64,000 bases of DNA from Dehalococcoidia bacterium (GTDB lineage Bacteria > Chloroflexota > Dehalococcoidia > Lucifugimonadales > UBA3495). A model generated the notes under the pieces. The model made no database searches. It had not been told where the DNA came from and was given only the letters and a program-made list of their open reading frames with translations. The stretch spans positions 1,410,204-1,474,203 of the forward strand of contig OY761541.1 of assembly GCA_963664625.1 (NCBI GenBank), given 5' to 3'. Positions 559 to 55,096 of this stretch are shown here, in pieces (position 1 is the first letter of the stretch; the number at the start of each line of letters is the position of its first letter). Made by a program: the position numbers and the translations under genes.

Positions 559-1239
559 TTCGGATCGGTCGGCAGATTCTGCGCTGGCGCCGCGGGCGGC
601 TGGCACCCAACCGGAAACCGCCGCTCGTCCCAAGTCCACTTGGTGACCATTCAGCGACCGGCGGGCGACAAAAGCCGTATTGACCAGTTGATAGACCTGC
701 AACTTAGACTTGTCGCTGTGGTACGGAAACGCAAACAGCCAGTTGCGGCCTTGAAAGACAACCGACCCCGTATCCTTCACGAAATAGTACCGCCCCACCA
801 GCACTGCGCCAGCGATGACCGCCAACAACAGGATAAGCGGTCCCATATCCATTCCGATGAAGGGAACCGAGGGGCCGTCGATATGTCCCGTAAGCCAATA
901 GGCAACGACCAGATAAATAACCAGCCCACCCACCACAACTACCAGCCCCTGGAGCAGGGAGCCGAACCCGCGGGCGCCTGAGCGCACCAGCACTCCCGCC
1001 AACTCCTCAACCGGCACGATGTGGGTCTGGGCCTTGCCGTCCTCTTGAGAGAAGGCCAGGATCCGCTGGTCGGTGGTGATCAACAGTTGTCCTTCCACCG
1101 GCGGCTCGTCGCTGAGACCCGCGGACGGTGAAAAGACATGGGTCACCCTCTCCCCCGGCAGAAGGGCCACGTCCCGAATGTGAGTAAGATAGCTTACGTC
1201 CTGCAAGTCCCCGTCCAACGCGCGTCCTCCGGATACCAT
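529..1239 (-). CDS. hypothetical membrane protein (soluble N-terminal domain plus 2-3 TM helices)
   Basis: 236-aa ORF with hydrophobic segments LLQGLVVVVGGLVIYLVVAYWL and GPLILLLAVIAGAVLVG. No family motif recognised. The last ~10 codons are read from the REP-A copy, so the 3' end is uncertain. Confidence 0.5.
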   Translation of the reverse strand: MVSGGRALDGDLQDVSYLTHIRDVALLPGERVTHVFSPSAGLSDEPPVEGQLLITTDQRILAFSQEDGKAQTHIVPVEELAGVLVRSGARGFGSLLQGLVVVVGGLVIYLVVAYWLTGHIDGPSVPFIGMDMGPLILLLAVIAGAVLVGRYYFVKDTGSVVFQGRNWLFAFPYHSDKSKLQVYQLVNTAFVARRSLNGHQVDLGRAAVSGWVPAARGASAESADRSEAYGFPPSRE

Positions 1240-2246
1240 ACTACCATAAGGGGTAGGTAGTTGCTGTTACGGCAGTTAGCCGCTAATTCACAATCGGGGA
1301 TGTCGTTATATGCAACTGTCATTTGTTGCTTGACTTTGGCATCGTAACTAAGGTACAGAAGGGTCAGTTTCAGATAGGATACGGCGTGCAATGACAACAC
1401 CGAAGGTAACTGCTGAAAAGTCGGGCAATGGGGAGTCTACGTTCATTCACAATATGGGGCTTCCGGTGCATGGATGGTACAGATTTCCGGCTGGCTTCTC
1501 GGCTGAATGGGCCCAGCAGGTTATAGAAGACCACCGTGGCGTAATCGGAGAGTTAGCCGTTTTAGACCCCTTTGCCGGCGTTGGCACGACCGTCCTGGCC
1601 GGTGAGAGTGCTGGTGTTCCTGCTTGCGGAGTCGAAGCTCAGCCGTTCATCCAAAGAATCGCCGCAGCCAAACTGCTTTGGCACAGTAACATCGCAGAAT
1701 TCCACGAAATGGCTCAAGCCGTGGCCGATCTAGCTAAGAGTAAATGCAGACAGTTGCCACCTTATCCAAAGCTTATTCATGGATGCTTTACCGAGGAGTC
1801 GTTGAATGATCTAAACGCCCTTCGTTGCGCTTGGGAAGAACTTAATGACGGTAGTCCCGGAGCAACTCTTAGCTGGTTAGCCTTGGTTGGCATCCTGCGT
1901 GCATGTTCCTCCGCTGGGACCGCTCCTTGGCAGTATGTCCTGCCTTCCAAGACGAAAAACAAAGTTTTGCCTCCATACGATGCGTTCGACTTACAGGTAA
2001 GACGGATGCTGGCTGATATGAACTACTGGCAAATGCTGGAAGCTAGACGGGACGCGAATATCTCTCGCGACGATGCGCGTCTACTTGAAACTGTACAGGC
2101 AGACTCTGTTGGGCTGGTAGTTACTTCTCCACCATACGCCAACAACTACGACTATGGCGATGCGACAAGGTTGGAAATGACATTCTTTGGGGAAGTATCC
2201 GGCTGGGGGGATGTACACTGAGATGGACCCCATTGGTTGGACAGGA

Positions 2247-3164
2247 TTAGGCCGTAATCAAGTGGGGTTCCTGCATCCCGTCGTATGATACCAAGACCGG
2301 TTGGTCCGAACACCTCCTCTCTTTGGTCTCCTTAGACTCTCCGCAGAAAACCTCCGCCGGCGTCCGGTAGCACAAGGCTTGGTGCGGCCTGCGGTTGTTG
2401 TAGAACCGGAAGTATTCTCCCAGTTCCCGGCGGGCCTCACTGGCGTTGCCGTAGGCTTTCAGGTATACCTCTTCGTACTTCACCGTCCGCCATAGCCGCT
2501 CCACGAAGATGTTGTCAGCGTAGCGCCCCTTCCCGTCCATGCTGATCTTCACCCCGCTGTCCTCCAGCACCTGGGTGAACTCGCGGCTGGTGAACTGGCT
2601 GCCCTGGTCCGTGTTGAACACCTCCGGCCTCCCCCGGCCCAACGCTTCAGTCAGCGCCTCGGCACAGAAACCGACCTCCAAAGTATTGGACAACCGCCAA
2701 GCCAGCACGTACCGGCTGTGCCAGTCCATGACCGCCACGAGGTACAGGAATCCCCGGGCCATGGGCAAGTAGGTGATATCTGCCGCCCACACCTGGTTGG
2801 GCCGGGTGATACTGGCACCCCGCAGGAGGTAGGGATAGACTCGTTGCTCCGGCGCCGGCCGACTGGTGCGAGGTTGTCGGTAGATGGCCCGCAGCCCCAT
2901 GACCCGCATCAGCCGCTGCACCCGCTTTCTACTTACCGGCTTGCCCCGCCTCTCCAGACAGGCTTTCATCCGCCTGGACCCGTAAAAGGGCGTCTCCAGG
3001 TACTGGCGGTCCAGTTCCATCATCAGGGACAGGTCCTGCTGTGAGGTCCCCTTGGGACGGTAGTAGAGGCTGGAGCGGCTGACGCCCAGCAACTGACACT
3101 GCCGCACTATGGACAGGTGTCGATGTCGCCGGTCCACCAACTCACGTCGCTGTGCAAGGCTCAT
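2247..3164 (-). CDS. IS3-family transposase OrfB (DDE integrase core)
   Basis: 305 aa; [10 protein letters not shown]...[15 protein letters not shown]...[10 protein letters not shown]...[13 protein letters not shown] is an rve/DDE core. The frame is also open upstream of the ATG, so an OrfAB fusion is possible. Confidence 0.9.
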
Positions 3165-3463
3165 GGACCGGACCTTTCCTCCAAGAAATCCCGCTCCACC
3201 TTGAGCTGGCCGATCTGCTGGTACAACCGGGCCACCAGAGCGTCGTTGTTCTTGCTCTTCTGACCCTTGTCTTTACTGGTCCCGTTGCCCTGGTCAAAGA
3301 TGGCGGACGCCCCATCGACCAGAGCCTTCTTCCATGTCTGAATCTGGTTGGGGTGAACCTCGAACCGGGCAGCCAGTTCGGCCACCGTCTGCTCGCCCTT
3401 CATTGCCTCCAGTGCAACTTTGGCCTTGAAGGCCGGGCTGTGCTTTCTTCTCTCTCTGGACAT
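3161..3463 (-). CDS. IS3-family transposase OrfA (HTH)
   Basis: 100 aa; [46 protein letters not shown] is typical of IS3 OrfA. Its stop overlaps the orfB ATG (ATGA). Confidence 0.85.
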
Positions 3464-4006
3464 TTCCCGCTCCTCCTCGACAGCTGTCGCTGCCCTCAGT
3501 TTAGAAGCAGGACTCCCACTTAGCTACCTGTCCAGTTTCTTGGGTCCACCTCACACGAAAAAGCGAGAAAGCATCTTATTAGGTCTTGCTCACAACACGC
3601 TTCCAGAGAAAAGCTCGACCTTAATCAACTCCTGAACGAACTTCGGGGAACCAACTTCGAGGGCGAAATATCATTGGTCTGTGAGGCACTAGGGGAAGAA
3701 CGACTTAATCACGGTGGGAAAAAAGACTACCACCTTATGGTTGCGGCTTACTTTGCGGACATGCGAAAGACATGGACAGCTCTTCGCCGGGTTTGTGCCG
3801 ACGGGAGTAAGGCCTGCTTTGTAGTGGGAGATTCGGCTCCCTACGGGGTACATGTACCAACTGATAGGTGGCTAGGCGAATTGGCTTTAGACGCCGGGTT
3901 TGAGTCGTACAGCTTCCAAAAGGTTAGAGACCGCAACACCAAATGGAAGAACCGCAAGCACCGTGTTCCCTTGAAAGAAGGGTTTCTGTGGGTACAAGGA
4001 TAGCTG

Positions 4007-4918
4007 GTGGCACAATCACCAACACATAGATTCGGACAGATCATCGGAGACTTGCTGGAAGCGGCCTTATATCCGATTTTGAAGAAATTCGCCGATGAGA
4101 GTGGGCTATACTTGGATCACAAGGGTAAGAGACCTTGCCGCAGTGGTATCAAGTGTACGTGGTTGGACAGTAACGGGAACAAGCACGACTTGGACTATGT
4201 GTTGGAGATGGGAGGGACGCCGGAATCGTTTGGCACTCCGGTCGCATTCATTGAAATTGCATGGCGAAGGTACACAAAACATTCGCGGAACAAAGTCCAA
4301 GAAATCCAAGGCGCGATAGAACCCTTGGCGGAAAAGTATCATCAATCATTACCGTTCAAAGGAGCAGTCTTAGCCGGTGAATTCACCAGTGGAGCCCTGG
4401 ATCAATTGCGATCCCTCGGTTTTAATATCGTCCATTTTCCATACCCAGCGGTAGTAGGGGCATTCAGGGAAGTCGGTATAGACGCAGCTACGGACGAATC
4501 GACGCCAGATGAAGTTGTCCTGCGTAGACTCCGGCAATGGGAGCGACTTTCTAAGCGCAGAAAAGGTCGGGTCGCCGATACACTCTTGGCAACAAGAGAA
4601 ACCGAACTGAAAGAATTCCTCGACGCGCTAACTCAATCGGTATCCCGTAAAATCGAAGAGGTCATTGTGCTTCCCTTACACGGAAGCAGATTACGTGCGA
4701 CATCCATTGCCGTCGCAAAGGCGTTACTTGAGGACTACGAGGAATCTGTTCCTCAGGCTCGGTTTGAACGATATGAAGTGCATATCAGGTTCAGGAACAC
4801 AAACGAGATCGTTGGGAGATTCAATGACAAGGCAAGCGCCATTGAATTCCTTGAGACCTATGAGAATGAAACTCGTCCCTCTCGACATCAGGTGAGCAAT
4901 GTTGGAGGCTCATATTGA
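4007..4918 (+). CDS. putative restriction endonuclease partner of the disrupted methyltransferase
   Basis: 303-aa ORF starting 4 nt after the methyltransferase stop. Possible PD-(D/E)xK-like core (DLDYVLE ... VAFIEIAWRRYTKH). Assignment rests mainly on gene position. Confidence 0.4.
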   Translation: MAQSPTHRFGQIIGDLLEAALYPILKKFADESGLYLDHKGKRPCRSGIKCTWLDSNGNKHDLDYVLEMGGTPESFGTPVAFIEIAWRRYTKHSRNKVQEIQGAIEPLAEKYHQSLPFKGAVLAGEFTSGALDQLRSLGFNIVHFPYPAVVGAFREVGIDAATDESTPDEVVLRRLRQWERLSKRRKGRVADTLLATRETELKEFLDALTQSVSRKIEEVIVLPLHGSRLRATSIAVAKALLEDYEESVPQARFERYEVHIRFRNTNEIVGRFNDKASAIEFLETYENETRPSRHQVSNVGGSY

Positions 4919-4961
4919 CAGACCTGCTTCCGTAATGATACGTTTCCCCCGTTAAAGACTG

Positions 4962-5227
4962 TGATGGAGACGAGTAGGCAAGGGTAGGCGGTTAGCGAGC
5001 CTGGTACAGTGCAAGCAGGTGCGCCGATCTTGACCGAAAATCCCTCCGGAGTCGCCAGCTGAACCCCTCCCTCCTGTGGAGGGAATGTAAGCCGGGCCGG
5101 GGTCGCCGCCCGTTACAAGCGGCGGGGCATGTTAGTGTCCTTATTGAGTGGTCCCGGCTGTGCCGGGGCAATTAGGGTGGTACCGCGGGTATACAAAGCC
5201 CCGTCCCTAGAGGCCGGGGCTTTTTTA
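4962..5227 (+). promoter_or_regulatory. T-box riboswitch leader upstream of ilvB
   Basis: Stem I elements are present: K-turn-like UGAUGGAG, AGUA S-turn, AG-bulge UUAGCGA and distal loop GGUACAGUGCAAG. Stem III is cccggcugugccgggg. The canonical T-box sequence AAUUAGGGUGGUACCGCGG lies at 5170-5188, followed by an intrinsic terminator. Confidence 0.8.
5197..5227 (+). terminator. T-box terminator hairpin plus U-run
   Basis: agccccg (5197-5203) pairs with cggggct (5215-5221) and is followed by tttttt. It competes with the T-box antiterminator. Confidence 0.75.
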
Positions 5228-5261
5228 TTTGCAAAATTTCGGCCCCGGGAAAGAGGTTGAC

Positions 5262-6941
5262 GTGAAACTCAAGGGTTCGGAGATCATCTGCGAAAGCCTG
5301 CGCCGTGAAGGCGTGGACGTCATTTTCGGACACCCCGGCGGGGCAATCCTTCCCTTTTACGACGCGCTGTGGGGCTTCCCTCACCTGCGCCATATCCTGA
5401 TGCGCCACGAGCAGGCCGCCGCCCATGCCGCCGACGGCTACGCCCGTATTACCGGGAAGGTGGGCGTCTGCGTAGCTACTTCGGGACCGGGCGCCACCAA
5501 CCTAGTAACCGGGATCATGGGCGCCAAGGCCGATTCGGTGCCCATGGTGGCCATCACCGGCCAGGTCGCTCGCGCCGCCCTTGGGTCGGAGGCCTTCCAG
5601 GAATGCGACACCTGCGCCATCGTGGCCCCCTGCACCAAGCAAGCCCAGATGGTGATGAACGCCCGTGAACTGCCTCGGGCAATCCATGAAGCCTTCCGCA
5701 CTGCCCAGGAAGGCCGTCCCGGCCCTGTGTTGATCGACGTGCCGAGGGACGTTCAACTCGAAGAGGCGGACGTGGAGTTTCCGGAGCCGTGGACCGCCAG
5801 TCCCGCCGTCTTGTCCGAGGAAACCTTGGAACGTGTGCGGCAAGCCGCCAGGATGATAAACGAAGCGGAGAGACCGGTAATCATCGGCGGGCACGGCATC
5901 CTCGCCTCCGGCGCGTCGGAGGAACTGAAGGACTTGGCCGAGGCCACCGGAATACCCGTCATTACCACCCTTCTGGGCGTCAGCAGTTTCCCCGGCAACC
6001 ACCCGCTCAGCATGGGAATGTTGGGGATGCACGGTATGTACTGGGCCAACATCGCCGTTGACCAAGCTGACCTTATCATAGGCTTGGGGATGCGATTCGA
6101 CGACCGGGTCACCGGGCGGGTCTCCACGTTCGCGCCCCACGCCCGGATAATCCACTTGGACATTGAGCGGAGCCAGGTCGGCCGCAACGTGCCGGTGGAA
6201 GTGCCCTTGGTGGGGGACGCCAAGGCCATCCTGCGGGCCTTGGTGCCCCAAGTAAACCGGGTAGACCGCCCCGATTGGATGGGCTATATCGCCGACTTGA
6301 GGCGCGACCATCCTTCATTGAGCATCCCCCACGGCGACAAGCTTCAAACGCAGCACGTCCTGAGGGACTTGAACGAACTCATCCAGGAAAACCGCGATAC
6401 CGTCGTGGTTACCGGGGTTGGACAGCACCAGATGTGGGCCGCTCAATTCCTGCACTTCGACCGGAGCAACTCCTTCGTGTCGTCCGGCGGGCTCGGAGCG
6501 ATGGGGTTCGAGTTGCCGGCGGCCTTGGGCGTACAAGCGGCGAAACCCGACATTCCCGTGTGGACCGTTGCCGGGGACGGCGGGTTCCAGATGACCTCGC
6601 AGGAACTGGCCACGGTATCAGAGGAAAAGCTGCCGGTGAAGATTGCCCTGTTCAACAACGGGTACCTCGGCATGGTGCGGCAGTGGCAGGAGTTGTTCTT
6701 CGACAACCACCTCAGCGCCGTGCCCGTCCCGGGACCGGACTACGTCAAGCTGGCCCAAGCCTACGGCGTGGGAGCGTTGCGGGTTACCGAACGGGAAGAC
6801 GTGCTATCCGCACTGCGGCAGGCCCAGGACTACGACGGGCCTTTCCTGATCGAGTTTGTGGTTGACCCGTCCGCCAACGTCTACCCGATGGTCCCGCCGG
6901 GCGGCGGGCTGGCCGACACGTTGGAAGACCCCGATGTGTGA
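5262..6941 (+). CDS. ilvB: acetolactate synthase (AHAS) large subunit, TPP-dependent
   Basis: GHPGGAILPFYDAL...HILMRHEQAAAHAADGYARITGKVGVCVATSGPGATNLVTGI and GLGAMGFELPAALG are AHAS/TPP motifs. I place the start at GTG 5262 after RBS gaaagagg, because the ORF-track start at 5229 lies in the terminator U-run. Confidence 0.85.
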   Translation: MKLKGSEIICESLRREGVDVIFGHPGGAILPFYDALWGFPHLRHILMRHEQAAAHAADGYARITGKVGVCVATSGPGATNLVTGIMGAKADSVPMVAITGQVARAALGSEAFQECDTCAIVAPCTKQAQMVMNARELPRAIHEAFRTAQEGRPGPVLIDVPRDVQLEEADVEFPEPWTASPAVLSEETLERVRQAARMINEAERPVIIGGHGILASGASEELKDLAEATGIPVITTLLGVSSFPGNHPLSMGMLGMHGMYWANIAVDQADLIIGLGMRFDDRVTGRVSTFAPHARIIHLDIERSQVGRNVPVEVPLVGDAKAILRALVPQVNRVDRPDWMGYIADLRRDHPSLSIPHGDKLQTQHVLRDLNELIQENRDTVVVTGVGQHQMWAAQFLHFDRSNSFVSSGGLGAMGFELPAALGVQAAKPDIPVWTVAGDGGFQMTSQELATVSEEKLPVKIALFNNGYLGMVRQWQELFFDNHLSAVPVPGPDYVKLAQAYGVGALRVTEREDVLSALRQAQDYDGPFLIEFVVDPSANVYPMVPPGGGLADTLEDPDV

Positions 6942-32467: not shown

Positions 32468-33061
32468 TCACATCCGCCACTGCTGGAAGTGATCGCTGAG
32501 GTTATCCAGAAAATGTCGAAGTGACCGGTCCAATTGTTTGGCTCGCTCGATGTCCATTTCCCGCACTATGTCTTCCGCAAATTCGATTCCGCCAAGACTG
32601 GGTGTAATGCCCGCGTCACGGATGGCTTCTATAAGGCGTTGCTTGTAAAGATGGCGGTCGCATTTCTGCTCCGGTGCATCGCATCCCCTGCCAAATACTT
32701 TTCTGAATGCGGCGCCATCGAGCAGCAACCAGCGTTCGATATGAGGGTCTGGAACGGCGGACACCATCGGAGGCAAAATGGCCGGCTTGTTCAAGTCGAT
32801 GATTTCCTTGGTCCGGTCGTTCAAGCCCCTGCAATTGGCGTCTGTAGCAGCAATAATCAAGTCGGGCAACGGGCCGCCTTGTCTTGCCAAGTCACGCAGA
32901 TAAGTTTGGAGTTCTTGGACCACTCTCCCATGTCCGCGTACCGCGCTCCTCCAGCTTAACCGCACTTCGGTTTCAAATTCTTCGGCAGTGCGTTGTACAA
33001 GCCCTCCGATCACTTGCTGATGCGCATAATCTTCCACGAACAGGGCAATCTCACGCATCAA
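32468..33061 (-). CDS. DUF4276/TOPRIM-like small protein (partner of the ATPase)
   Basis: 197 aa with N-terminal IALFVEDYAH (conserved acidic strand) and LIIAATDANCRG (DxD-like position). Its start overlaps the ATPase stop by 11 nt. The family name is from memory. Confidence 0.45.
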   Translation of the reverse strand: MMREIALFVEDYAHQQVIGGLVQRTAEEFETEVRLSWRSAVRGHGRVVQELQTYLRDLARQGGPLPDLIIAATDANCRGLNDRTKEIIDLNKPAILPPMVSAVPDPHIERWLLLDGAAFRKVFGRGCDAPEQKCDRHLYKQRLIEAIRDAGITPSLGGIEFAEDIVREMDIERAKQLDRSLRHFLDNLSDHFQQWRM

Positions 33062-34361
33062 AGTCCCCTCTCAGGATACGCTCTGATACGGGAAGCTGTT
33101 CCTGAGTGTCATTGAGCGCGTGGGGGATGTCGCCCCCACGCCACAACGCTCCCCAAGTCGTGAACGGGCTGATTTGAGTGCAACGGCCGCTTCGGACAAC
33201 TGGGAATAGAGAATCGTTCGGCAGCATATCAGGCAGAATTGGGGAGTGAGTAGTGACAATGTACTGAGTCGGGCCGATGCCAGAACGTGTTTTCAGCAGT
33301 TCGGCGATCAACTGGATTCGGCGGGGGTGAACTCCGTTTTCCGGCTCCTCAAATCCCACCAGCGATGGGGGGTTTGCAGCGCCAGTGAGGGCCAGAAGTC
33401 CCAGCATACGCAGCGTACCTTCGGACAACACCCTGGAAGGAATGGCGACCCCGTTCTCCTTGAGCCGAAGCTCTACTTCACCTATATCGCTCACGTCCAC
33501 TTCTATGCCGTCGACGTTCGGCATCACGGTGTGGAGAGCCTTTTCTACGGCTTTGAACTGATTCGGTTCCAGTGCTTTGAGAGTATTGAGATAAGCCGCA
33601 AGCTCTTCACCCATTAGTCCTATGTGGCGAACTTCCTTGATGGGGTTGGCTGCTCGCATACGCTCTCTCGGCTCGAAGTAAAAGAACAACCAACTCTCCA
33701 ATTCACGCCGCGCCGCTGTCAAATGGGGATAATGCGGCGGATAGTGCGGCATTGAAAGAATTGTGCGGTCAAGGTAACGGTCATATTGGGTAGGGTGTGC
33801 TTGCCCTTCCAACCGCAGGTGAATCTTTTCTCCCTGCCGCTCCAGGAATGGTTTCCGCTTGCCGGTGGGTTCTCCTATGGAGTTAAGGGCCGCCAAGTAT
33901 TCATCGGTCATGCGCAGAAACCCTGATCTGGGCAGCATCTCGATCTCTACACGATAGCGCAGACTCCTTTCCCGGACCCGTGCGGAACTGGCGCCGGTAG
34001 ATTCCGCGCCCCCACCGCCGCTGGGCCGGCGCATTTCCTGTATTTGCCGGTTTACGGCATTAACGACCGTGTCCGAAAGATGCAGGTCGGCCTCGATGGA
34101 AAAGACCAACCTCTCCTGTTCCAGCGAACCTTTCAGTCCCATTTCGCCAAGGGTGAAAGATTCCAAGGGTTTACCTCGATACGGTGGATCGAAAGCCTCG
34201 TTTAATGTTTGGCTGGTCGCTAGTTTCGACAACAACTGGAGACAATCAAGGAAATTGCTTTTGCCAGCGGAGTTAGGCCCGAAAAGCAGGGTAAGCGGTG
34301 AAAGCTTCACCTCAACATCGCAAAGGGACTTGTAGCCTTTGATGTGAACTCGGTCTAACAT
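33051..34361 (-). CDS. ABC/SMC-type AAA_15/21-like ATPase
   Basis: Walker A FGPNSAGKSN, signature LSEGTLRMLGL, Walker B LVGFEEPENGVHP and H-loop VTTHSP, with a long insertion between the A and B motifs. Confidence 0.75.
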   Translation of the reverse strand: MLDRVHIKGYKSLCDVEVKLSPLTLLFGPNSAGKSNFLDCLQLLSKLATSQTLNEAFDPPYRGKPLESFTLGEMGLKGSLEQERLVFSIEADLHLSDTVVNAVNRQIQEMRRPSGGGGAESTGASSARVRERSLRYRVEIEMLPRSGFLRMTDEYLAALNSIGEPTGKRKPFLERQGEKIHLRLEGQAHPTQYDRYLDRTILSMPHYPPHYPHLTAARRELESWLFFYFEPRERMRAANPIKEVRHIGLMGEELAAYLNTLKALEPNQFKAVEKALHTVMPNVDGIEVDVSDIGEVELRLKENGVAIPSRVLSEGTLRMLGLLALTGAANPPSLVGFEEPENGVHPRRIQLIAELLKTRSGIGPTQYIVTTHSPILPDMLPNDSLFPVVRSGRCTQISPFTTWGALWRGGDIPHALNDTQEQLPVSERILRGDFDA

Positions 34362-34702
34362 GTCGAGTCTCCCACCCGCTAGGCGTCAGGGAAAGAACGG
34401 TGCTTTCTCCTGGATAGTTAAGCAGGTTCTGATAACCAACCAAATGGTACGATGCACCACAAAATTTGTGAAGTGCAAGCACCTTGCCGACAAACAAAAC
34501 CTCATCCCCGGTCCCCGGATGTAACAAGCCGGTATCCTGTCCCTGTACCCCTCTATGACACTTGCCCCTTTCCAACTCCGATAATGCTGCCGTACCATAC
34601 TACCTGCCCAACGTAACCCCCAACCGGTTGGCATTAGTCCCGCCTCCCAATGGGAGGCAATGGGAGGAAACCGGATGTACAATGGTCAACGGAGAAACCA
34701 CT

Positions 34703-51919: not shown

Positions 51920-52010
51920 ACGTCCCCTTGAGCTGAAACCATTGCCAACATGCGGCTCTCAGGAGAGCGCTTGATAATATATAATTGCCCAATTGCTCAG
52001 GGGGTATAGG

Positions 52011-52649
52011 ATGGCAACGGAACCCGAAACGATAGCCCGGGTGCTGGGACAACTGGAAGGGCGGATAACCGAACTCTCGGCATCCATACAGGAAGTGAAC
52101 CGACGTATGGACGCGGGGTTTCAGGCATTCCGGCAGGAGCTTCAGGAAATCAACCACCGAATGGATGAAAGGTTTCAGGAAGTCAACCACCGAATGGACG
52201 AAAGGTTTCAGGAAGTCGACCACCGGATGGACGCGGGGTTTCAGGCATTCCGGCAGGAGCTTCAGGAAGTCAATCACCGGATGGACGAAAGGTTTCAGGA
52301 AATCAACCACCGAATGGACGAAAGGTTTCAGGAAGTCAACCGCCGGATGGAAGCGGGGTTTCAGGAAATCAACCATCGAATGGACGAAAGGTTTCAGGAA
52401 GTCAACCGCCGGATGGAAGCGGGGTTTCAGGCATTCCGGAAGGAGCTTCAGGAAGTCAACCACCGGATAGACGCGGGGTTTCTGGCATTCTGGCAGGAGC
52501 TTCAGGAAATTAACCGCCGGATGGACGCAAAGTTTCAGGAAGTCAACCGCCACATTGACCGGATGCTTCTGGCACTGCTGGTTATCGGCGGCGGCTTGAT
52601 AATCGCCCAAACCGGACTACTGGCCACACTGATAATCCGAGGTGGGTAG
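52011..52649 (+). CDS. tail-anchored coiled-coil protein built from 11-residue repeats
   Basis: About 14 copies of FQE(V/I)N(H/R)RMD(E/A)(R/G), with occasional 8-residue FQAFRQEL inserts, then a C-terminal TM helix LLALLVIGGGLIIAQTGLLATLII. The 300-aa ORF on the opposite strand is a shadow of the repeats. Confidence 0.65.
   Translation: MATEPETIARVLGQLEGRITELSASIQEVNRRMDAGFQAFRQELQEINHRMDERFQEVNHRMDERFQEVDHRMDAGFQAFRQELQEVNHRMDERFQEINHRMDERFQEVNRRMEAGFQEINHRMDERFQEVNRRMEAGFQAFRKELQEVNHRIDAGFLAFWQELQEINRRMDAKFQEVNRHIDRMLLALLVIGGGLIIAQTGLLATLIIRGG
52089..52560 (+). repeat. 33-bp coding tandem repeat array
   Basis: Units such as caccgaatggacgaaaggtttcaggaagtcaac are repeated with minor variation. 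There are no spacers and the array is in frame. Confidence 0.9.
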
Positions 52650-53291: not shown

Positions 53292-54668
53292 ATGGCATTG
53301 GAAGCGCAACCTTCACAAATGCTGCTGACGCCAAGTGGCGCGAACGGGCATTTTGGCGAGGCTGCATCAGCAAACAATAAGTCACTGTCAATTCATCGCT
53401 GGGCCAACTGGATAGCCGGTTTTTCCGGAGAGTTCGCCCGCAGCGCCATTACGCAGTATCTCCCTTTTCCACGTCGAGACTGCGTCGTCATGGACCCGTT
53501 CGCCGGGGTGGGGACTACGCTGGTCGAAGCCAACCGGTTGGGGTTGGACTCCATCGGGTTCGAGATAAACCCCTTCGCTCACTTGGTTTCGGACGTCAAG
53601 CTGCGGTCGAAAGACATCCCCCTGGAGAAACTCACGGAAGCCGTAGGCCAATATGAGACTTTCATGGAAGAAGCCGGGCAATCGTCCGAGCGGAGCGGTT
53701 GCATGGAGGATGTACGCCCGGCCCCCCGCCGTTCACCGCCGCCGGGATTCAAGAGCAGGATCCCCTTCTATTCGCCGGCGGTGGAAGAGCGGGTGTTGTT
53801 TACCCTGGACTTCCTGGACAATCTGACCCCGCCGGTGCAGAACATTTTCCGGGTCGCCTTTGCGTCGGTGATGGTGGAGTTCTCCAACTACACTTACGAG
53901 CCGTCCTTGGGGTCGCGGCCCGGCGCAGGCAAGGACCTGGTGATCGATGCCCCGGTGGGCGGCATCGTGGCGGCGAAGCTGCGCCAGATGTTGGAGGACA
54001 TTGCGGAATTTCAAGCGGACGCAGCCCGGCAGCCCAAGAGTCCCCGATGGCAGGTCCACAACTGCTCTTTCTTTGAAGCCGAAAGCCGCGTAGACCCCGG
54101 CACTGTTGACTTGGTAGTGACATCGCCGCCCTACATGAACAACTACCATTACGTCCGCAACAGCCGTCCGCAACTTTTCTGGACAGGGCTGGTTACATCG
54201 CCCGCCGAGTTGAAGAGGCTGGAGCAAGAGAATTTCGGAAAGTTCTGGCAAACGGTAAGGGCTGAAGAGCCTATATCCTTGGTGCCTCATTTGCCTGACC
54301 TTGAGGAACAGTTGGCTGAGATACGGGAAATCAACCTTGCGAAGGGAGTATACGGCGGTAGCGGCTGGGCCAATTACATCTGCACCTATATGAATGACCT
54401 CGACCGTTTCTGTGGGTTGTTGGTCCGGTTGTTACGGCCCGGCGGGACGGCGGTCGTAGTGCTTGGCAACTCCATAGTCCAAGGCAGGGAGATAAAGGTC
54501 GAAGAATATCTATGCGCCATTGCCAAGCTCAACGGCCTTGCGGTGGTAAGAGTCCAGAAGCTGCGGGAACGCACCGGCTCCAGCATAATAAACAGCGGGG
54601 CCAGGCTCCACACGAGAAGCAAGGCCCCGTTGTACGATGCTGCGGTAGTTTTGCGGCGGACAAGTTAG
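53292..54668 (+). CDS. type II DNA (N6-adenine/N4-cytosine) methyltransferase, intact paralogue of 1391-4003
   Basis: MDPFAGVGTT (motif I) and VVTSPPYMNNY (motif IV). Same motif order and similar blocks as the IS-disrupted gene. Confidence 0.8.
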   Translation: MALEAQPSQMLLTPSGANGHFGEAASANNKSLSIHRWANWIAGFSGEFARSAITQYLPFPRRDCVVMDPFAGVGTTLVEANRLGLDSIGFEINPFAHLVSDVKLRSKDIPLEKLTEAVGQYETFMEEAGQSSERSGCMEDVRPAPRRSPPPGFKSRIPFYSPAVEERVLFTLDFLDNLTPPVQNIFRVAFASVMVEFSNYTYEPSLGSRPGAGKDLVIDAPVGGIVAAKLRQMLEDIAEFQADAARQPKSPRWQVHNCSFFEAESRVDPGTVDLVVTSPPYMNNYHYVRNSRPQLFWTGLVTSPAELKRLEQENFGKFWQTVRAEEPISLVPHLPDLEEQLAEIREINLAKGVYGGSGWANYICTYMNDLDRFCGLLVRLLRPGGTAVVVLGNSIVQGREIKVEEYLCAIAKLNGLAVVRVQKLRERTGSSIINSGARLHTRSKAPLYDAAVVLRRTS

Positions 54669-55096
54669 CTTGTCGGCGGGAACCGTCGGTCCCACTCATT
54701 AACGTAATTCGGCATTCCCGGGCGTCCCCTGCCCGGTGCGTGCATACTGAATCCTGGAATTCCGTTCCATTCTGGGTTGAATCTTGCGATCAAGACTTCC
54801 TCCGCTCTGGCTATTTCCCATAGCCTCGGAATCGTCAAAAATCGGCAAGAAACTTCCTCTGGGTCGATGCCTATCCTGTTCTCGATTTTCCGCAAATGAT
54901 CACGTAACCGATTACGCAGATTCCGGGCTTGTCCAACGTAAACGGGTATCCCGTTCCGGTAAATGACATAGACACCGTTGCTGGTAGGAGCCTCAGTTGC
55001 CCTGATGGGATGCTCCGGGCTGTCCGATAGCACGGTGGCTAATTGGTCCTCGTAAGCCCTGTCCACGTCGAAGACAAAATCGTGTTGGTCACACAC
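54665..55096 (-). CDS. Eco29kI-family GIY-YIG restriction endonuclease
   Basis: GVYVIYRNGIPVYVGQA...LRNRLRDH...CRFL...EEVLIARFNPEWNGIPGFSMHAPGRGR...WD parallels the Eco29kI/Cfr42I motifs (YVGKA, CRF, PLWN, GFGNHxPGxGR). Convergent with the methyltransferase, with a 4-nt overlap. Confidence 0.75.
   Translation of the reverse strand: MCDQHDFVFDVDRAYEDQLATVLSDSPEHPIRATEAPTSNGVYVIYRNGIPVYVGQARNLRNRLRDHLRKIENRIGIDPEEVSCRFLTIPRLWEIARAEEVLIARFNPEWNGIPGFSMHAPGRGRPGMPNYVNEWDRRFPPTS

Follow-up and report, generated by a model that had tools for sequence, protein, structure and literature searches.

An apparently recent IS3-family insertion splits the methyltransferase gene of a putative type II restriction–modification operon in a Dehalococcoidia bacterium

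We analysed a 64-kb stretch of DNA (64,000 nucleotides, referred to below as the window, from which all positions are counted) of contig OY761541.1 of a Dehalococcoidia bacterium, in which an insertion sequence (IS) interrupts a DNA methyltransferase gene. We call the split methyltransferase gene M and the open reading frame (ORF) that follows it, at 4007-4918, R. The product of R is a putative restriction endonuclease, such that M and R would together make up a type II restriction–modification (R-M) pair. The features of the locus are listed here, with the sequence differences in R given relative to two related loci, L001 and L002.

1391-2218, plus strand: 5′ fragment of M, codons 1-276, with the S-adenosylmethionine (AdoMet) motif I DPFAGVGTT and the catalytic motif IV SPPY
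2216-2218: left copy of the target-site duplication, CAC
2219-3553, minus strand: IS3-family insertion sequence, 1335 bp, with TG..CA termini and a GC content of about 60-65%, similar to the host flanks
2219-2245: right inverted repeat (IRR), the orfB-distal terminal inverted repeat, 27 nt, complementary to 3527-3553 at 20/27 positions
2247-3164, minus strand: orfB of the insertion sequence, a DDE (rve) transposase of 305 aa, read in frame -1 with respect to orfA
3161-3463, minus strand: orfA of the insertion sequence, 100 aa, HTH_Tnp_1 DNA-binding protein
3527-3553: left inverted repeat (IRL), the orfA-proximal terminal inverted repeat, 27 nt; the same 27-mer is present in five further contigs
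3554-3556: right copy of the target-site duplication, CAC
3557-4003, plus strand: 3′ fragment of M, codons 277-424 and the stop codon TAG, with TTG 3674 as the sole possible in-frame start
4007-4918, plus strand: R, putative type II restriction endonuclease, 303 aa, with a GTG start 3 nt past the M stop codon
about 4007-4456 (residues ~1-150), plus strand: predicted N-terminal PD-(D/E)XK domain of R; the C-terminal domain is family-specific
4861-4869, plus strand: one nucleotide present in L001 and L002 is deleted between 4861 and 4862, with the ancestral TGA at 4867-4869 out of frame

The element is an IS3-family insertion sequence. Members of this family have imperfect inverted repeats ending in TG...CA, duplicate 3-5 bp of target DNA and use a -1 frameshift to yield an OrfAB protein. 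Like IS3, IS150 and IS911, the window element is 1.3 kb long with TG..CA ends and imperfect inverted repeats, pairs an HTH-containing orfA with a DDE/rve-containing orfB, and is flanked by a 3-bp duplication. Its ends read TGAGATGG.../...CCACCTCA or, in a longer reading, TGAGATGGACCC.../...GGGTCCACCTCA, which gives the TG..CA termini, and 74% of the positions in the inverted repeats match. The 12-mer TGAGRTGGACCC occurs within the 64 kb only at the two ends of the element, where it is inverted, against an expectation of 0.04 occurrences. In Pfam the orfB product contains PF00665 rve (2.4e-22) together with HTH_21, and it scores 285 bits against the NCBIfam model NF033516 transpos_IS3 (cut-off 160), matching model positions 89-368; the orfA product covers positions 2-80 of the same model. 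The two genes (orfA, 3463-3161; orfB, 3164-2247) overlap in the sequence ATGA, and the orfB reading frame stays open for 36 codons 5′ of the orfB ATG. Unlike in canonical IS3-family frameshifting, we saw no slippery heptamer of the A-AAA-AAG type in the orfA/orfB overlap window, and an OrfAB fusion is only putative here.

Further copies provide independent confirmation of the boundaries of the element, of its 3-bp duplication and of its mobility. One related copy, L084, is 1354 bp long and 92% identical, starts and ends with the same nucleotides, is flanked by AAT/AAT and keeps the ATGA-overlap layout of orfA and orfB. In addition, the 27-mer of the IS end is found unchanged in four Joint Genome Institute (JGI) contigs, in each of which it abuts a different flank. 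The L084 copy comes from the same metagenome as L001.

The target gene can be reconstructed exactly. Excising 2219-3556, which leaves one CAC, produces a 1275-nt ORF of 424 aa. The related metagenome contig L001 carries tsaD, a 229-aa minus-strand gene, an intact 424-aa methylase and its 287-aa partner, and the reconstructed M protein aligns with the intact methylase without gaps and with 390/424 residues identical (92%). In blastn searches against L001, the left flank of the insertion (518-2218) matches 3833-5549 and the right flank (3554-4869) matches 5547-6864, and these two matches overlap by exactly one CAC, the unoccupied target. Because the element is bordered by a target-site duplication and the relative has the empty site, the insertion arose by true transposition into a previously uninterrupted gene.

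The event also looks recent, judging from the state of the two genes. Neither fragment of M shows any lesion besides the insertion, M has a dN/dS (the ratio of nonsynonymous to synonymous divergence) of about 0.10 and R one of about 0.11 when compared with L001, and the window lineage is no farther from outgroups than is L001, with no rate excess. Neither dN/dS nor the relative-rate comparisons gave any sign of relaxed selection on R. A first-pass annotation of this DNA had described an IS3-family element with TG...CA ends, 27-bp inverted repeats and a CAC duplication, had noted that its in-silico excision restores a methyltransferase frame of about 424 aa, and had proposed that the event was recent. 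These points stand, except that the repeats must be described as imperfect, and the uninterrupted allele whose presence in relatives it had suggested looking for is the one carried by L001 with its single CAC.

Motifs and profile matches identify the reconstructed 424-aa product as a DNA methyltransferase, as the first-pass annotation had held, and place it in the N4/N6 type. It contains FAGVG at residues 60-64 and SPPY at residues 246-249, scores 36.2 bits against PF01555 (cut-off 26.7) and matches the PADLOC MTase_II model PDLC03306 with an E-value of 9.6e-122, residues 12-424 aligning to positions 16-422 of 422. The insertion cuts the gene after residue 276, and the ORF of the 5′ fragment ends at a TGA (2219-2221) made up of the opening three bases of the element. 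The protein is thus deprived of 148 conserved C-terminal residues, among them the strongly conserved block NHGGKKDYH...FVVGDSAPYG...KWKNRKHRVPLKEG that lies in the 3′ fragment. From the loss of these residues and the stop codon at the start of the element, we conclude that the split M is inactive.

The identity of R is less obvious from routine annotation. Searches of R against Pfam, NCBIfam and PDB sequences returned nothing useful, and public records for it read 'hypothetical protein' or, wrongly, 'DNA methylase'. However, R matches the PADLOC REase_II model PDLC03525 with an E-value of 7.2e-67 (residues 1-285 on positions 1-287 of 288), and a second REase_II model, PDLC03541, matches its N-terminal 170 residues (7.4e-28). 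An AlphaFold2 model of residues 1-152 has a predicted local distance difference test score (pLDDT) of 91.2 and an alpha-beta-beta-beta-alpha-beta core. The top Foldseek matches to this N-terminal domain are nearly all PD-(D/E)XK nucleases (AF1548, Cdn1, BstEII, MspJI, BsoBI, Can2 and EcoO109I), among them the restriction enzymes BstEII, MspJI, BsoBI and EcoO109I, with probabilities of 0.9-1.0, template modelling (TM) scores of about 0.46-0.50 for the best matches and 0.37-0.50 overall, and modest E-values (1.7e-3 or weaker). Searches with the full-length model gave low TM scores because R has two domains.

Conservation within the R family points to a plausible active site. Three residues do not vary, namely D63, which precedes strand 64-68, E83 within strand 77-87, and K96; at least 90% of members also share D61 and K91. 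Position E83+2, where the canonical motif has a lysine, is an invariant alanine. D61, D63, E83 and K96 are the likely candidates for active-site residues, and the lysine may be supplied by the helix that follows.

The family to which R belongs is large and tightly linked to M. It numbers at least 3,777 proteins at a threshold of E<=1e-3, spread over many bacterial phyla and some archaea, and in 83/83 loci the R homologue is immediately preceded by a homologue of M, with a gap of 3-13 nt. The nearest relatives of the window locus are in Dehalococcoidia metagenome-assembled genomes (MAGs). The family also travels on plasmids, as indicated by a homologous M-R pair on the small, mobilizable Erwinia aphidicola plasmid p3_N2_6 (L086, 5.9 kb) and on four sibling plasmids. 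The R protein of L086 is 41.5% identical to that of the window and is annotated 'hypothetical protein', and an additional short methylase gene lies alongside the pair.

The N-terminal 169 residues of R are 38% identical to those of a 308-aa ORF directly downstream of the methylase of pAMI7, a Paracoccus aminophilus plasmid that carries PamI, a type II module of NcoI specificity (CCATGG; PMC3925955). From its adjacency to M.PamI, we take this ORF to be the PamI endonuclease. The two proteins have in common the blocks H/D-x-D-[FY]-V-L-E and F-[IM]-E-x-x-W-R-R, and in both systems the gene order is M then R. Taken together, the PADLOC matches, the predicted PD-(D/E)XK fold, the similarity to the pAMI7 ORF and the linkage to M make it credible that R is a type II restriction endonuclease, of a PD-(D/E)XK family always preceded by the M family. 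The proposal of the first-pass annotation that the 303-aa ORF is the nuclease partner is accordingly plausible, and its concern that the product might have no nuclease fold is answered by the predicted N-terminal domain.

The resemblance to PamI has limits that bear on the recognition site. The annotation of the pAMI7 methylase is that of a C5-cytosine enzyme, in contrast to the window M, which is of the N4/N6 type with SPPY. Similarity between the two nucleases does not extend to their C-terminal halves, so that their specificities may differ. NcoI reportedly pairs with an N4-methylcytosine (m4C) methylase and PamI with a 5-methylcytosine (m5C) enzyme, and post-segregational killing is said to have been reported for PamI as well. 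A table in a 2025 review, which lists M.NcoI as m5C and M.BamHI as N6-methyladenine (m6A), looked unreliable and was set aside. The PADLOC models PDLC03525 and PDLC03306 are full-length, high-scoring matches to R and M, respectively, but carry neither an enzyme name nor a recognition sequence. Given the SPPY motif and the methylase types of NcoI and PamI, an NcoI-like specificity (CCATGG with m4C) for the R-M pair is a lead only.

Palindrome frequencies do not point consistently to any recognition site. CCATGG occurs about as often as expected, with 20 sites in the window against 20-31. GCATGC is absent from the window, although composition predicts about 20 sites and a fourth-order model 10.7, and TCGCGA and GAGCTC are each present a single time where about 17-20 would be expected. 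The scarcity of these three palindromes may reflect avoidance of the sites of some R-M system in the genome. When palindrome avoidance was pooled over 82 host loci with this R-M family, no palindrome was depleted beyond general CTAG-type avoidance.

We compared R with its homologues to assess whether it could still encode a functional nuclease. R retains 101/101 of the columns that are conserved in at least 90% of sequences (118 homologues). Its one lesion is near the 3′ end, where the 1-nt deletion puts the ancestral TGA out of frame and the ORF consequently runs on for 16 codons. The deletion alters the last two residues of what was ancestrally a 287-aa protein and then adds 16 more, and the extension runs into DNA that has no homology to L001, similarity ending at 4869. 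Residues 289-303 are predicted to be disordered (pLDDT <50), and the last conserved helix (275-286) is intact. The 16-residue tail is probably harmless, because other members of the family have tails about as long, some extending 10-13 residues beyond the shortest members. Judged by its alignment, the R coding sequence is thus intact apart from the C-terminal tail. The first-pass annotation had stated that R has no frameshift or stop; the open 303-aa frame holds, but the absence of a frameshift does not, given the deletion near the end.

Divergence between the window and L001 is uneven along the operon. Synonymous divergence (dS) is 0.89 for R (compared with L001 6001-6864) and 0.42 for M, a difference of about twofold, and the amino-acid differences in R cluster in its C-terminal half. 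The higher dS of R may reflect recombination or mosaicism within the operon.

Post-segregational killing by type II R-M systems, or 'genetic addiction', was described by Naito, Kusano and Kobayashi in 1995 (as cited in PMC3031569). Under this model, the loss of M beside an intact R looks paradoxical, yet here the lineage evidently survived the inactivation of M. The M-then-R gene order sets this case apart from the plain addiction scenario, in that one polar insertion in M can take out both activities together. We lean towards the explanation that the recent insertion both inactivated M and, by polarity, silenced R.

The arrangement of the two genes is what suggests such a dependence. In the related loci that we inspected, R starts a few nucleotides (3-8 nt) after the M stop codon and a Shine-Dalgarno-like sequence lies within the last M codons; this tight spacing and embedded ribosome-binding sequence indicate a single M-then-R transcription unit, and R appears to have no evident transcription unit of its own. 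The M-R pair has a GC content of about 50%, compared with 60-65% in the flanks and the insertion sequence, which fits horizontal acquisition. On this reading, an IS3-family element transposed into M of a horizontally acquired, low-GC operon. Translation of a transcript from the M promoter would then end at the first codon of the element and be followed by about 1.8 kb without convincing in-frame translation, made up of 1.3 kb of antisense insertion sequence and the 3′ fragment of M. The sole ORF in the M frame in this interval is a weak, TTG-initiated one of 109 codons. The same transcript would also be opposed by convergent transcription of the transposase genes. Elements of the IS911 type have an outward-facing -35 promoter element at their orfB-distal end, and any such promoter would here be directed away from R. 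Most likely, R was polar-silenced in the same step that destroyed M, and the lineage would have survived with the entire operon disarmed at a stroke. On this view, R still looks intact because there has been too little time for decay.

Several observations weigh against silencing by polarity. A scan of 1100-5400 for sigma-70 promoters found none; as this includes the region upstream of M, the scan is uninformative for this organism. The insertion sequence contains 8 terminator-like hairpins, compared with 4.2 +/- 2.1 after shuffling, which is not above background. R has a Shine-Dalgarno-like AAGGA 6 nt before its GTG, so that read-through, or a promoter within the 3′ fragment of M, could still lead to its expression. 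Nor does polarity alone fully account for survival, since under the classical form of post-segregational killing the joint loss of M and R should also be toxic. Finally, the 16-residue tail of R could have inactivated the enzyme, or could be a lesion that came earlier.

The window contains a further methyltransferase that is relevant to the survival of the lineage, and that we describe before weighing the alternatives.

53292-54668, plus strand: second N4/N6-type methyltransferase, 458 aa, with SPPY
54665-55096, minus strand: homologue of Eco29kI-type GIY-YIG restriction endonucleases, 143 aa, PF09517 RE_Eco29kI 2e-14

The nuclease gene is convergent with the methyltransferase gene and overlaps it by 4 nt, and 53292-55096 is apparently a second, intact type II R-M pair. 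The 143-aa ORF resembles Eco29kI in matching RE_Eco29kI and GIY-YIG and in its convergent arrangement with a methylase. It differs in being shorter than the PADLOC Eco29kI-like models (214-216 positions) and in having a methylase of the N4/N6 type, and it is unrelated to R.

The first-pass annotation had offered, besides silencing by the element, two other reasons why the loss of M might be tolerated, that the nuclease was already inactive or that the paralogous methyltransferase at 53292-54668 protects the same sites. If R had been non-functional or barely expressed before the insertion, M would have been dispensable and its disruption neutral. The candidate lesion is the deletion at 4861/4862, which is absent from both L001 and L002 and carries the ORF into unrelated DNA to encode a disordered tail. 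Against this, all of the conserved columns and the last conserved helix are retained, tails of similar length occur naturally in the family, and the window lineage shows neither an excess of dN nor a raised dN/dS. With the tail as the sole lesion, prior inactivity of the nuclease has little support, and we consider it unlikely, if still worth attention. Protection in trans of a genome in which R is active, by the methyltransferase at 53292-54668 or by one elsewhere in the 3.76-Mb genome, we regard as improbable. The second window methylase has the same motif order (DPFAGVGTT ... SPPY), and with 64 kb of the genome in view further methylases could lie elsewhere. However, it is only 24% identical to M with many gaps, falls in a different PADLOC cluster (PDLC03224 rather than PDLC03306) and is paired with its own Eco29kI-type nuclease, for which reasons cross-protection of R sites by this enzyme is unlikely and the paralogue proposal is disfavoured. 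A motif screen of window ORFs of at least 150 aa gave no further DNA methylase; the other candidates that it raised proved to be an AAA_21 ATPase and a GMC oxidoreductase.

Two further alternatives were considered. The insertion might be confined to part of the population, or be a consensus or assembly artefact, with viable cells keeping an intact operon. The source is a single 3.76-Mb contig that is present once in the protein collection, its closest relatives are without exception metagenome contigs or MAGs from uncultured organisms, and frameshifted M genes in 5/83 related loci, from long-read MAG-type assemblies, are possibly sequencing errors. However, an assembly chimera would not produce an exact 3-bp duplication, complete IS ends and halves that rejoin in frame. 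The left flank had no exact match in a scan of JGI metagenomes that could have revealed the same strain with or without the element, a result that is neutral with respect to heterogeneity. We think it quite doubtful that either accounts for the locus. It is more doubtful still, to the point of being hard to credit, that the split M works as two polypeptides, the 276-aa N-terminal fragment and a C-terminal fragment started at TTG 3674. The N-terminal fragment does retain motifs I and IV, and the 109-aa TTG ORF (3674-4003) is in frame with a GAGGG about 10 nt upstream. However, residues 277-315 would be lost, including EKARKHL(I/V)RSCSQHAS, which is conserved in L001 and L002, the C-terminal fragment would need a promoter in or beyond the antisense insertion sequence, where none was evident in the promoter scan, and the split layout occurs in 0/83 related loci.

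There is also a slim chance that R is made and active without M, the chromosome being shielded by an unlinked methylase whose specificity overlaps, by strong depletion of recognition sites or by efficient repair of breaks, which would make R a natural orphan restriction enzyme. In five of the 83 related loci (L003, L011, L024, L027 and L076), a frameshifted M lies beside an uninterrupted R. Four of these are MAGs labelled MFD and the fifth is a contig of 5x coverage; the frameshifts are at four positions, and none is in R. The long-read-like nature of the assemblies makes sequencing error likely. Were such M-broken, R-intact states truly recurrent, they would hint that loss of the methylase leaves this nuclease less harmful than the addiction model supposes.

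The M-R pair is bordered on one side by a conserved membrane-protein gene and on the other by the T-box leader of ilvB, with the following features downstream of R.

4952-5211: T-box leader, Rfam RF00230, 102 bits (gathering threshold 93), beginning 34 nt past the R stop codon
5203-5220: terminator-like hairpin of the T-box leader
5229-6941: acetolactate synthase large-subunit gene, directly downstream of the T-box leader

The genes downstream of R in L001 differ from those in the window, in which the R-M island is wedged before the T-box leader. Elsewhere in the window, 51993-52649 (plus strand) encodes a 218-aa ORF made of 33-bp (11-residue) tandem repeats of FQE(V/I)NHRMDER, which are nested in higher-order periods of 66 and 120 bp, with a hydrophobic C-terminal segment. 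At 33054-34385 (minus strand) there is a gene for a 444-aa AAA_21/AAA_15 ATPase (AbiEii-like family in Pfam, 7.6e-28), which possibly belongs to another defence or toxin-antitoxin module.

The evidence supports the description of this locus as an ordinary, recent IS3-family knockout of M in a known type II R-M family. Operon polarity would be a simple explanation of how a dead M can stand beside a readable R. If it is correct, the locus would be a clean example of a selfish R-M operon disarmed by one IS insertion in the upstream M, illustrating that a single insertion in M can abolish both activities when R depends on the M transcript. For the family of at least 3,777 proteins to which R belongs, the analysis suggests a functional label, that of PD-(D/E)XK type II endonucleases whose catalytic domain is related to that of the PamI/NcoI-type enzyme. 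The locus would carry more weight if R turned out to be both expressed and active, since survival with an orphan restriction enzyme would run counter to the standard expectation of post-segregational killing.

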